A stretch of 64,000 nt of DNA, from positions 11,160,001 to 11,224,000 of the forward strand of contig NC_047017.1 in the NCBI RefSeq assembly GCF_902652985.1, read 5' to 3'. Below, piece by piece: positions 55,790 through 60,699 of the stretch (its first letter is position 1; each line of letters begins with the position of its first letter). The translations under genes were made by a program, and so were the position numbers. The notes under the pieces are model-generated. The model made no database searches. It worked only from the letters and a program-made list of their open reading frames with translations, and had not been told where the DNA came from. The DNA is from Pecten maximus (taxonomy: Eukaryota).

Positions 55790-56542
55790 TTGTACCTTTT
55801 TGTATACATGTATACACCATAATTACACCTTAATCTGTAATGGCCTATAGATAGTGACCATGGTAACTGACCAGTCTGGAGTTGTGTACCTTTTTGTATA
55901 CATGTATATACCATAATTACACCTTAATCTGTAATGGCCTATAGATAGTGACCATGGTAACTGACCAGTCTGGAGTTGTGTACCTTTTTGTATACATGTA
56001 TACACCATAATTACACCTTAATCTGTAATGGCCTATAGATAGTGACCATGGTAACTGACCAGTCTGGAGTTGTGTACCTTTTTGTATACATGTATACACC
56101 ATAATTACACCTTAATCTGTAATGGCCTATAGATAGTGACCATGGTAACTGACCAGTCTGGAGTTGTGTACCTTTTTGTATACATGTATACACCATAATT
56201 ACACCTTAATCTGTAATGGCCTATAGATAGTGACCATGGTAACTGACCAGTCTGGAGTTGTGTACCTTTTTGTATACATGTATACACCATAATTACACCT
56301 TAATCTGTAATGGCCTATAGATAGTGACCATGGTAACTGACCAGTCTGGAGTTGTGTACCTTTTTGTATACATGTATACACCATAATTACACCTTAATCT
56401 GTAATGGCCTATAGATAGTGACCATGGTAACTGACCAGTCTGGAGTTGTGTACCTTTTTGTATACATGTATACACCATAATTACACCTTAATCTGTAATG
56501 GCCTATAGATAGTGACCATGGTAACTGACCAGTCTGGAGTTG
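55790..56542. repeat. 94-bp array built from the MED6 exon-4 3' end plus donor site (8 copies)
   Basis: CAACTCCAGACTG|GTCAGT recurs at 56530, 56436 ... 55872; copies are nearly identical. Confidence 0.96.
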
Positions 56543-56612
56543 ATGACTGAGGCGAGGTCCGGAGCTTGGTACACCACTCCAGCGATGATGTAGTAGTCCG
56601 CCAATGGCACCA
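56530..56612 (-). CDS. MED6: MED6 exon 4
   Basis: atattacag|TG ... CTG|gtcagt; [28 protein letters not shown]. Confidence 0.95.
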
Positions 56613-57126
56613 CTGTAATATGATAAGTGTATGTGGATTTTACCTCAAATGTGTGTTCCATTATTTCAAACCTAATACATTGTACATGCAATTTGATAAA
56701 AACTCCTGTTTACTTAATAAACCTATTTAATGGAGAAAGTTTCAATACAATATCAGGATTAAAACACAGAGTTTTTTTTTTTTTTAGAAATGACATTCTA
56801 TTTGCTATTCTTGAACATAGCTAATAATATTCTCAGGTTAAAACACAAAAGATGATATTGGTAGATAAGTGAGGTTAGTAATTCTTTACAGCTTTCATTA
56901 AGTGCACTCTTCCACTTTACAAGATTAACGTCAGGGTGTGCTTACCAGGTATGTTGAATATAGTGCTTCAAATCAGGAGTGGGATCATGGTAACATATAC
57001 ATTTATTTATAAAAAAATATAGATACTGTATTTGAATGTACATGGATCAACATACAACCAAATGTTATTTTGACCCAAATTATGCACAATCCCCAACAGT
57101 AAGTACTTCTATAAGTTTATACAAAC

Positions 57127-57529: not shown

Positions 57530-57698
57530 TTTAATTGATCAAGGCTTAATCTCTGCATTTTGATGATTTCATTGTTGCAGGTGTGGTCGTAAAAAGGGTT
57601 GCTCCTCTCGCTGAAGTAGTCCATCACATTAGAGGTGTTCAGCAGTGGGATGAATGTGCTGTCATGCCAGCTAATGCCAAGAGCACCGGCATTCAAAT
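57530..57698 (-). CDS. MED6: MED6 exon 2
   Basis: aattttacag|AT ... TTA AA|gtaagt; [42 protein letters not shown]. Confidence 0.96.
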
Positions 57699-57798
57699 CT
57701 GTAAAATTAAAATTAAACTGAGCATTAGTAATGTAAGATTTTCCAAATCTTTGCAATCATAGAAATTTCTGGTCAGTTCTTGATATACATTGTACATA

Positions 57799-58159
57799 TG
57801 TAGCGAGACTGGAATGGGTCGATCATTGACGACAAGGTAGCTCAATTGACAGAGCATCCATCTAGTGATCAGAGGTCCTGGGTTCGAACCCTGATGTGGC
57901 TGCTACAATTTCTCTTGTTACAAAATTGGCCAGCTACAGCTTGCAAACCCTTGTTGAATATTGGGAGTATACTTAACCAGGGGATAACGGTACTTGTTGT
58001 CTTTGCAGGAGAAGACATGAAAAAAAGAGGAATTTAGCAAGACTTGACTGGATCGATCATCAGCAACCAAGTAGCTCAATTGGTAGAGCATCTGTCTGTG
58101 TTCAGAGGTCCCGTTCGAACCCAGGTCTGGCTGCTACATTTTCATTTTCTCCTGCTACA
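57799..58159 (+). mobile_element. 361-bp non-autonomous LTR element (TRIM) with tRNA-like sequence inside both LTRs
   Basis: LTRs 57799-57922 and 58033-58159 (TGTAGC/TTTAGC ... TACA). The internal part starts AAATTGG and ends with purine tract GAAAAAAAGAGGAA. TSD CATA/CATA. A box GTAGCTCAATTGG and B box GGTTCGAACCC lie in the LTRs. Confidence 0.8.
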
Positions 58160-58737
58160 CATAAAATGTACAGGTACATGCACTAAGTATGTTCTCTGAC
58201 TTAAAATCCGGCAATGTATCATGGTAAAATCAAAGGCTCTAAATAGAACAAATAATGTAAGAATTTCCATTTTACCTGTCATTTCTAGTTCGTTACAAAT
58301 GGATCGCACATTTATATATATATGTAGGGGTGTCTGGTTGAATCTGCCCAGGGAAAAATATATTTTATGTGTATAACTATACTCTAGTCTATGTAGATTT
58401 ACTTTTCATATGATTCAATAATCTACATGTATGAGTAATAAATATTACGCATTAAATAAGGTTCACGAGCTTTGTCTGGTATTGTTATTTGTCGATGTAA
58501 GTTCAAATTAATACAAATTTATTTATATAAGGTAATATGAGGTACATAAAGACACTATATTTCAAAGTGATTATAATCAAGTTTGTATTCTGATTAGGAT
58601 AATAACCCTTAAGCAAACATGGCTTACGGCACGCATGGATGTGGCGCTGGGCCGTGTTGTTACAACTGAGTTGCTCACAGTCAGAGTCTCTCATTTTCAG
58701 GCCTTCATTTCTAGGTGTGATCCATTTCATATAATGA

Positions 58738-59148
58738 TGTTGTGACATGACCGGGAATCGAACCCATGCAGGATCTCCCACTTGGTAGGCGAGCATTCTA
58801 ACCATTGTGCCAAAAATCCGGACGGTAGGCTCGAGGGTCTAAAGCTGCCTAATTTTACCACATTTCTCCCCATCTTAATTTTGATGTCCTTTTCGATCTC
58901 TCTGAGATCATACCCGGTTTGACTTACGGTAGCTACCACACATCATTTCTGACGGTGATCCATTCATATAGGACAAGAACAGTCATCACCAGATGGAGCG
59001 GGAAAATCCGTTTGTCGATGACGCCATTGTTGTGGCCGGACGGAGAATCAAACCTGGGACCTCCTGCTTGGTAGGCCGGCGTTCTAACCATTGTACCAGA
59101 AGTCCGGACGTTAGGCTCGAGGGTCAAACGCTGCCTAATTTTATCACA
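58738..59148 (-). mobile_element. 411-bp non-autonomous LTR element (TRIM) with tRNA-Gly-like sequence inside both LTRs
   Basis: LTRs 59148-59028 and 58862-58738 (TGTG...CAACA). PBS-like aTGGCGTCATCGAC follows the 5' LTR; PPT AAGATGGGGAGAAA precedes the 3' LTR. TSD ATGA/ATGA. Confidence 0.85.
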
Positions 59149-59445
59149 ATGATATATTATATCATTTGTTACCAACACCTTTGATTAGCTACTGTTATAA
59201 CGGAAATGAGTTTCACACTTTTGTCCTATTTTCCGGAAAAGTAGATAAAAGTGTCAAATGCTCTTCCGATACAACAGTACAGTACTTCAACTACATTGTA
59301 GCAAGCCTACAGTAGCTAAGCTGCAACTGGTAGCTGTGCTTATAGTCTCCATATACTTGAGTAGACAATATTTATCTTCGTTTAACTTAAATATTTACCA
59401 ATGTACTACATATATTTTCAATTATATACTTATTTCAATTATTAC

Positions 59446-59455
59446 CTTTGTCCAT
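59446..59455 (-). CDS. MED6: MED6 exon 1 coding part (ATG GAC AAA G), best candidate
   Basis: ataATGG context, donor AAG|gtaata, phase 1 joins exon 2 ([14 protein letters not shown]); lies just downstream of a promoter-like motif cluster. Total CDS 729 nt / 242 aa. Confidence 0.6.
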
Positions 59456-59514
59456 TATTGTGTAAATGAGGAGAATGCCGCAGACCACTAGTCGTTTCTA
59501 TTATCTTTGTATGG

Positions 59515-59541
59515 ACGACGCCATTTTGTTTGTCACGTGAC
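59515..59541 (-). promoter_or_regulatory. MED6 promoter: YY1-type AAAATGGCG plus palindromic E-box GTCACGTGAC
   Basis: GTCACGTGAC at 59532-59541; CGCCATTTT at 59519-59527. Confidence 0.55.
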
Positions 59542-59766
59542 CAAATGTGAGGCAGGTTCGATTAGAAATTCTGACGAAAAAGATTATCTTGATATCATGT
59601 TGGGTTTCGTTTCGGAGCATATTTATACTTCATACGATTTGTGTGTTTGCAATATACATAACATTTTCATCTTTCATAGAGTGAAAATGACACATCCACA
59701 TTGAAGAAGAACACGATATAATATCGGTATGCATTACAGGGTGGTAAAACATAAAGTACATCATAG

Positions 59767-60692
59767 CAGAGACATATATACAGAGAGATTAGTAACATCG
59801 CTATTTCCCCGTACACATAGTGGCTCCCTTTATTCGTGACCACTCAAGCATATCCCTTATCGAGAGCGTCCTGTCTCCTATCAAACACACGCGAGCGCAG
59901 GTAAATCGGGCTATGCGCATGTGTGTATCGTAGTATTGGAACTTATTCGACATGTTCTGGTTAATCCGCCATTACCAAAAACCAAAACATCGTCATTTTA
60001 AATACACACAGAAAGCACATCGTTTTATTTTGGCCACTACAAAAGTTACCACATTAACCAAAAACTATCAAACTTATGGGATATAGTCTTATTGATCATG
60101 CATATTGTTGTCATTTATCCGTATTTTCGAAAATCCATTGGGTCCTATTCGACATGTCCAAGTTTGTAATTAAGCCGCCATTACGTCAGACCAAAACATC
60201 GTCAATTTTAAACGCACACAAAAAGCACATCGTTTTATTTAGGCCACTACAAAAGTTACCACATTAACCAAAAACTATCATACTTATGGAATGTGGTCTT
60301 GATTATCATGCACATTGTTGTCATTTATCCGTATTCTCGAAAACCCCATAGGGACTTTTCGAAAATTGGAGATTCCCGCCGATCTTTCCTGCGTTGTGCT
60401 TGACTTTCATACTCAAAATACAAACACTTGGACATCAAATTGTGATATATTTCATATTGATGACACTTCTGCACTTTGATATTAATAAAATTAAAGCACA
60501 TAATTGGATCTTGGTGATGATTTCAAATAGAAATTATCGATAATTATGTGTCTGGTTTTCAAGTTTTCTCCAATATGGCGTCTAGTGAAGACTAAACCGA
60601 GCGACCGCAAAGGATTGTGGGAAGGTCAGGGGCCACTATGTAAACACAAGGGCAAATAGAGAGCTGCCAATCTCTCTGTATATATGTCTCTG
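59767..60692. mobile_element. 926-bp non-autonomous TIR DNA transposon (P-superfamily-like)
   Basis: Perfect 24-bp TIR CAGAGACATATATACAGAGAGATT with imperfect subterminal extension; 7-bp TSD ATCATAG; internal ~205-bp direct duplication (59940-60345). Confidence 0.88.
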
Positions 60693-60699
60693 ATCATAG

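Follow-up and report, generated by a model that had tools for sequence, protein, structure and literature searches.

The 411-bp element on the minus strand at positions 58738-59148 of the window (the whole 64,000-nucleotide stretch of Pecten maximus DNA analysed here), which we call element 2, is a Helenus TRIM. Helenus elements have been defined as TRIMs with tRNA-like LTRs, a primer site and a purine tract (Kojima 2024, PMC10886601). The architecture is already known and hence not novel; what is new is the family, absent from the 13 listed scallop families. In animals, Helenus elements produce 4-bp duplications and were probably moved by Gypsy elements, and 51 families have been reported from bivalves; the available part of PMC10886601 gives their transcription by polymerase III without experimental validation. 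Taken as a whole, the best explanation, to which we assign a probability of about 0.88, is a Helenus TRIM with a polymerase III/Gypsy mechanism, belonging to an old, low-copy family retained in gene-dense DNA.

Structure of the element

Every part previously listed for element 2 is present in the sequence (Table 1). The LTRs, the primer site, the purine tract and the ATGA duplication are all in place, and its earlier description as a tRNA-in-LTR mini-retroelement holds. A single A separates the 5' LTR from the primer site, which starts at 59026, and identity between the two LTRs is 81.6% when gaps are counted. Element 2 contains no open frame of 150 aa or more and has no coding capacity; with two LTRs, a length below about 1 kb and non-coding content, it is a TRIM by definition. 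Boxes A and B are the motifs established for tRNAs. The tRNA-like pieces of both LTRs score below the Rfam tRNA cut-off of 29 bits.

Table 1. Features of element 2 and its surroundings (positions in the window)
Feature	Position	Strand	Remarks
Target site duplication, 3' side	58734-58737	.	ATGA on the plus strand; perfect 4-bp
3' LTR, element 2	58738-58862	-	125 bp; 4-nt insertion before box B
tRNA-like piece, 3' LTR	58743-58811	-	Rfam tRNA 16 bits
Polypurine tract	58863-58876	-	Abuts 3' LTR
Internal part	58863-59027	-	Non-coding, 165 bp; common to 7 other aligned two-LTR copies
Primer-binding site	59014-59026	-	11/13 bases complementary to host tRNA-Ser(AGA) 3' end plus CCA
5' LTR, element 2	59028-59148	-	121 bp, TG...CA ends
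tRNA-like piece, 5' LTR	59037-59105	-	Rfam tRNA 15.6 bits; best host match tRNA-Gly(GCC)
Box B-like motif, 5' LTR	59044-59054	-	C-to-T change here; 3' LTR box B intact
Anticodon position, 5' LTR	59070-59072	-	ACC
Box A-like motif, 5' LTR	59087-59098	-	Most uniform segment among copies (0.90)
Target site duplication, 5' side	59149-59152	.	ATGA on the plus strand; perfect 4-bp
Element 1	57797-58160	+	Other, abundant Helenus family; matches Helenus-2_PeMa by eye
MED6 intron 1	57699-59445	-	RNA contig joint in 2/4 runs; Pfam Med6 on exon 2
MED6 exon 1	59446-59530	-	5' end approximate, contig overlap of 83-85 bases

The tRNA-like piece and the primer tRNA

Two different tRNAs are involved in this element, as the sequence-only reading had proposed when it likened the LTR piece to tRNA-Gly(GCC) with an ACC anticodon and the primer site to the 3' end of a tRNA-Ser. 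In a comparison with nine host tRNA types plus two Gly-derived variants, a set outside which Ala, Val, Asp, Glu, His and others lie, host tRNA-Gly(GCC) gave the best alignment to the LTR piece in 8/8 LTRs. ACC is the majority triplet at the anticodon place, present in 25 of the 33 aligned LTR rows. For the primer site, the 11/13 fit to tRNA-Ser(AGA) is the best among the host tRNA types compared. The primer-site pattern occurs in 16 host genes, 12 of which were fetched and all proved to be tRNA-Ser(AGA), and seven of the ten two-LTR copies fit this primer at 9-11 of 13 bases. The LTR's tRNA piece is not the primer, the LTR being Gly-like and the primer Ser, nor is it a functional tRNA.

It could be argued that a functional tRNA-Gly(ACC) gene forms the LTR piece, or that the element consists of adjacent tRNA-derived SINEs or pseudogenes, since ARAGORN calls the solo LTR at L024 a tRNA-Gly(ACC) and ACC is the majority triplet. 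However, ARAGORN found 0 tRNAs in the window and called only 1 of 24 family loci, the pieces lie below the Rfam cut-off and have neither a cloverleaf nor an A-rich tail, and folding against shuffles gave no excess for the LTR pieces (z -0.03 and 0.54, against -1.79 for host Gly). Moreover, many copies have TG...CA ends, a primer site and a purine tract, with a 4-bp duplication flanking the complete unit. The functional tRNA or SINE-pair reading is refuted by the two-LTR structure with its duplications, and we hold it to be extremely improbable.

When the genome was searched for a further host tRNA combining the LTR's anticodon arm with a 5-base variable loop, the only match was a copy of the family itself. 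Among the copies, column uniformity is 0.90 in box A, 0.87 in box B and 0.84 at the LTR start; this small surplus of box A may reflect CpG content as much as function in an old family. In the host genome, clusters of tRNA-Gly(GCC) genes lie at C5 13.70-13.72 Mb and C18 2.25-2.27 Mb, with variants that ARAGORN calls Gly-ACC and Trp-CCA, and clusters of tRNA-Ser(AGA) genes lie at C13 18.7-21.2 Mb.

Copies, target sites and age of the family

Element 2 had been taken as a member of a family, and other copies with its structure do exist. A search of the same genome turned up 28 matches spread over about 25 places, counts that are lower bounds and that include two places looking like duplicates of others. 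LTR-only, internal-only and pattern searches yielded one extra fragment and otherwise places already found, and because they kept returning known places we regard the family as small. A tight LTR-start pattern matched the genome 11 times, versus 0 for the reversed control; this result and the 28 matches argue that element 2 is not a product of chance.

Of the 20 loci scored, four are without one end; two LTRs are present in 10, and the members of a pair are 67-86% identical over aligned columns. A perfect 4-bp duplication flanks 9/20 of these loci and a perfect 5-bp duplication 0/20; L002 provides a tenth 4-bp duplication once its extra LTR starts are included. Eight of the first nine follow an N-Y-R-N target pattern (background 0.25), which the tenth does not fit, and this preference was noticed after the fact and not set beforehand. 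The solo LTRs with duplications reveal later recombination between LTRs.

LTR-LTR divergence, which had been proposed as a measure of age, makes all copies old (pairs 67-86% alike), and the median pairwise LTR identity is 78.7% over 33 aligned LTR rows, in which one locus stands twice. The family is old, without any young copy; it has few copies and is probably extinct. Its copies lean to the chromosome ends, as 12 of the 23 family loci on the 19 large contigs fall within the outermost 22% of their contig half (KS P 0.025).

No match to the family was found in the viral contigs searched. A metagenome match to an 18-base LTR word (L168) lies on a GC-rich, bacterial-looking contig with likeness to that word only, and was rejected as chance; likewise, an apparent element 2 match in L277 proved to be a cross-match to box B. 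In four RNA runs searched at 90% likeness, no contig covers element 2, a result to be read with the limit that assembled contigs cannot show absence.

Relatives within and beyond Helenus

Words of 17 and 16 bases from element 2 occur within the Helenus supplement only in Helenus-2_PiNo and Helenus-3_PiNo, families of the pen shell Pinna nobilis with sizes of 121/178 and 122/182 bp and 4-bp duplications (PMC10886601). By hand count on the printed sequences, the 5' LTR in the window agrees with the Helenus-3_PiNo LTR at 97/122 positions (80%) and the solo LTR L013 at 106/122 (87%), and the internal blocks of element 2 and the pen-shell family are colinear as judged by eye. Both have LTRs of 121-122 bp, the same purine tract, a 4-bp duplication and a primer site starting TGGCGTC. 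They differ in that the host of element 2 is a pectinid scallop, where copies are few and old, the internal part of 164-182 bp is without the pen-shell middle segment, and the family's anticodon arm is Gly-like with ACC. Whereas the scallop primer site fits host tRNA-Ser(AGA), PMC10886601 labels the primer of Helenus-2/3_PiNo 'tRNA-Glu-NNN'; since the homologous scallop site fits tRNA-Ser(AGA), we suggest that the pen-shell label be rechecked.

The 13 scallop families (Helenus-1 to -5_PeMa, Helenus-1 to -4_ArIr and Helenus-1 to -4_MiYe) share with element 2 the architecture and the 4-bp duplication, but use tRNA-Lys or tRNA-His primer sites according to PMC10886601, unlike the tRNA-Ser site of element 2; in the part of that source available, no likeness between element 2 and these families is visible outside boxes A and B. 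The sequence-only reading had envisaged a diverse family, and this is borne out. Element 1 matches Helenus-2_PeMa and element 2 is nearest to Helenus-2/3_PiNo. The two may represent independent tRNA captures or diverged branches of one old bivalve lineage.

Other known TRIMs are more distant. Cassandra is likewise non-autonomous and has a polymerase III gene piece in each LTR, but it is a plant element with 5S rRNA LTRs and validated transcription (PMC10886601), whereas element 2 is a scallop element with tRNA-like LTRs whose polymerase III transcription is proposed. The biv-TRIM of Satovic et al. (2019, PMC6934838) is also a small bivalve TRIM for which horizontal transfer was proposed; it is without an identified canonical primer site, and a tRNA-derived LTR is not described in the part of PMC6934838 available.

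The likeness to the pen-shell family is a hint of horizontal transfer, which may have occurred between the pen-shell and scallop lineages, in either direction, instead of common descent. L013 is nearer to Helenus-3_PiNo (87%, by hand count) than the scallop copies are to each other (median 78.7%), even though host WDR20 is just 67-71% identical to that of oyster, pearl oyster and mussel. Element 2 is unlike all 13 pectinid families in the available supplement, and transfers of bivalve TRIMs and SINEs have been proposed, one of them with Pinna nobilis (PMC6934838, PMC11481361). However, Helenus elements and bivalve SINEs are described as staying conserved for very long (PMC10886601, PMC11481361), and a low-copy old family could have been overlooked in other bivalves. 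Based on these sequence comparisons, we judge a transfer possible, at somewhat less than an even chance. Neither a term search of the available text of PMC10886601 nor a wider literature search returned an account of Helenus genomic distribution or horizontal transfer.

Candidate Gypsy partners and proposed mechanism

At 12 places in the genome, an LTR-like end is followed by a perfect Ser primer site, and 10/12 continue into long open frames. The three such loci that were scanned encode protease-RT-RNase H-integrase, in Gypsy order, two of them with an extra BTB-domain frame. These Ser-primer Gypsy families are partner candidates by class only: element 2 and these loci have no sequence in common beyond the primer site, internal or LTR, and a search with the purine-tract junction pattern matched only the family's own copies (7/7) and no autonomous partner. 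The extra frame is an observation in its own right. It is a third frame, placed after the integrase, with Pfam BTB_2 (BTB/POZ), and it lies at 6939-7973 of L138 and 6996-8237 of L141 (C5 19.72 Mb and C275), both Gypsy-type elements with an 18-base tRNA-Ser(AGA) primer site; our literature search found no paper on a BTB_2 frame in such Gypsy elements.

According to the proposed mechanism, polymerase III would initiate at the tRNA-like piece in the 5' LTR, and the T run that immediately precedes box A in the 3' LTR would terminate the transcript, an end point suggested in part by the Cassandra account (PMC10886601). The transcript would keep a short terminal repeat, as reported for Cassandra (PMC10886601). 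A T4 run 22 bases into the internal part counts against such a transcript, which would have to read through it. The RNA would then be primed by tRNA-Ser(AGA), to which it is complementary, and by the purine tract, and a Gypsy particle would presumably reverse-transcribe and integrate it, with the observed 4-bp duplication and the N-Y-R-N preference. The copies, which are found mostly in gene-dense regions and often in early introns and beside other Helenus, would most likely be short old elements that were retained there.

Position in MED6 and neighbours in the window

The sequence-only reading had placed both elements near the MED6 promoter. They lie instead within MED6, because RNA contigs join 57698 to 59446 in 2/4 runs and exon 2 encodes Med6, which puts elements 1 and 2 in intron 1. 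Element 2 has the orientation of MED6; the exon 1 donor is 297 bp away from it, and the most 5' of the contig ends about 380 bp.

Several other features of this region were observed. A 48-bp imperfect inverted repeat, or hairpin, adjoins element 2 in MED6 intron 1 (59190-59279). A repeat that is very abundant and has perfect terminal inverted repeats of 24 bp (59765-60694) lies just upstream of MED6 exon 1, and a 35-bp insert in the internal part of the family copy L009 is derived from its ends. Within MED6, a 94-bp unit is tandemly repeated with 100% identity (56000-56636), and an RNA joint ends at the edge of this array (56530-56612). Farther away, a large WDR20 exon (2884-4272) encodes protein 94% identical to that of Mizuhopecten yessoensis.

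Distribution of the copies

The idea that such elements cluster, put forward together with possible targeting to open chromatin or to existing polymerase III/TFIIIC sites, holds in part. Different Helenus families do lie closer together than chance: another family occurs within 1 kb of 5/22 copies, where 0.23 or 0.51 would be expected (Poisson P at most 2e-4). Three families served as queries for this count, with the window and one short window left out; the expectation of 0.23 derives from 3 Helenus-like loci in 57 control windows, that of 0.51 from 17 region-matched windows, and two of the five close-neighbour cases rest on short matches near E 1e-5. The L186 copy is nested in a Helenus-1_PeMa-like LTR, at its box A region, and is flanked by a duplication of its own, GCTT. 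L197 (4400-5290) brings together, in less than 900 bp, an element-1-like remnant recognised by eye, half an LTR of a third family and the family copy. In L287, a Helenus copy was matched by eye to Helenus-1_PeMa.

Some further details of these loci can be recorded. In L186 (4638-5314), the LTR start of the copy is additionally present as three 30-bp copies in head-to-tail order. The 5' LTR of the L197 copy is interrupted by about 240 bp of SINE-like sequence that has a tRNA head and an (AAAC)n-type tail, and at a distance of 3.6 kb (8915-9175) two element-1 LTRs stand head to tail.

Targeting to tRNA genes, on the other hand, found no support. Across the 76 tRNA-gene loci, about 204 kb of non-redundant sequence, there is one marginal Helenus match and no excess, and no real tRNA gene lies within 5 kb of the 19 family copies inspected. 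The element-1 family, for its part, has a neighbour within 1 kb in 2/40 copies (0.4-0.9 expected), these 40 being about every second of the first 100 listed among 738 exact motif matches. Clustering of its motif on C1-C3 is weak, with 2 gaps under 10 kb versus 0.5 expected.

Regarding gene starts, manual reading, applied to the family copies only, placed 6/19 near one. These include intron 1 of a VPS25-like (ESCRT-II) gene (L188), ClpP (L197), the divergent pair TMEM101/XRCC4 (L200), the start of a WD40 gene about 590 bp away (L187), and motif clusters at L192 and L193. The assignments rest on Pfam, run on 145 hand-picked frames out of 446, and on sequence reading; the WD40 gene, which a PDB search did not name, we take to be STRAP-like. 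An automated promoter score first gave 5/19 copies versus 5/80 (P 0.02, with 40 scattered controls). The final comparison at 2 kb, to which 17 region-matched controls and 3 held-out copies had been added, gave 5/22 copies versus 13/114 controls (P 0.14), versus 8/34 when only region-matched controls are used, and 0/3 in the held-out copies; the promoter motif list came from general knowledge, and was revised once in the light of individual cases. The contrast in CpG between near and far sequence was not significant (11/19). Hence, the copies sit in promoter-dense regions, and the promoter excess vanishes against region-matched controls.

The pile-ups could also be insertion hot spots, with a Gypsy integrase drawn to existing Helenus LTRs or to open chromatin directly downstream of the promoters of housekeeping genes. 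The close neighbours of 5/22 copies against the 0.23-0.51 expected, the nested copy of L186 and the 6/19 copies placed near gene starts by manual reading of the copies alone would fit such an attraction. However, neither the promoter score (P 0.14, level with the matched controls, and 0/3 among held-out copies) nor the younger element-1 family, with a neighbour in only 2/40 copies, bears it out, and there is no surplus of Helenus around real tRNA genes, which are the principal TFIIIC sites. We therefore consider hot spots unlikely. Retention is the reading we prefer: copies likely adjoin other Helenus because such elements survive best in gene-rich DNA. Old SINEs accumulate in the gene-related DNA of bivalves, which has been read as survival bias (PMC11481361), and this bias fits the stronger signal in the old family. 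Even so, retention alone does not obviously account for the nesting in L186, or for neighbours within 1 kb being 10 to 20 times as frequent as expected.

Significance

This analysis adds an old family to a published class, together with its primer tRNA-Ser(AGA), an N-Y-R-N target preference and candidate Gypsy partners. For genome annotation, it means that Helenus LTRs can inflate tRNA gene counts, as one was called tRNA-Gly-ACC here. The remaining interest lies in the co-occurrence of Helenus families, far above chance in this sample, and in a nearest relative that comes from another bivalve order. A bolder scenario, which we rate as quite improbable, would combine a Helenus jump between pen shell and scallop with pile-ups of unrelated Helenus families in first introns of housekeeping genes, produced by Gypsy integrases targeting existing Helenus LTRs or promoter-proximal chromatin. 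If true, this would be an example, from animals, of polymerase III-type TRIMs seeding their own insertion hot spots.
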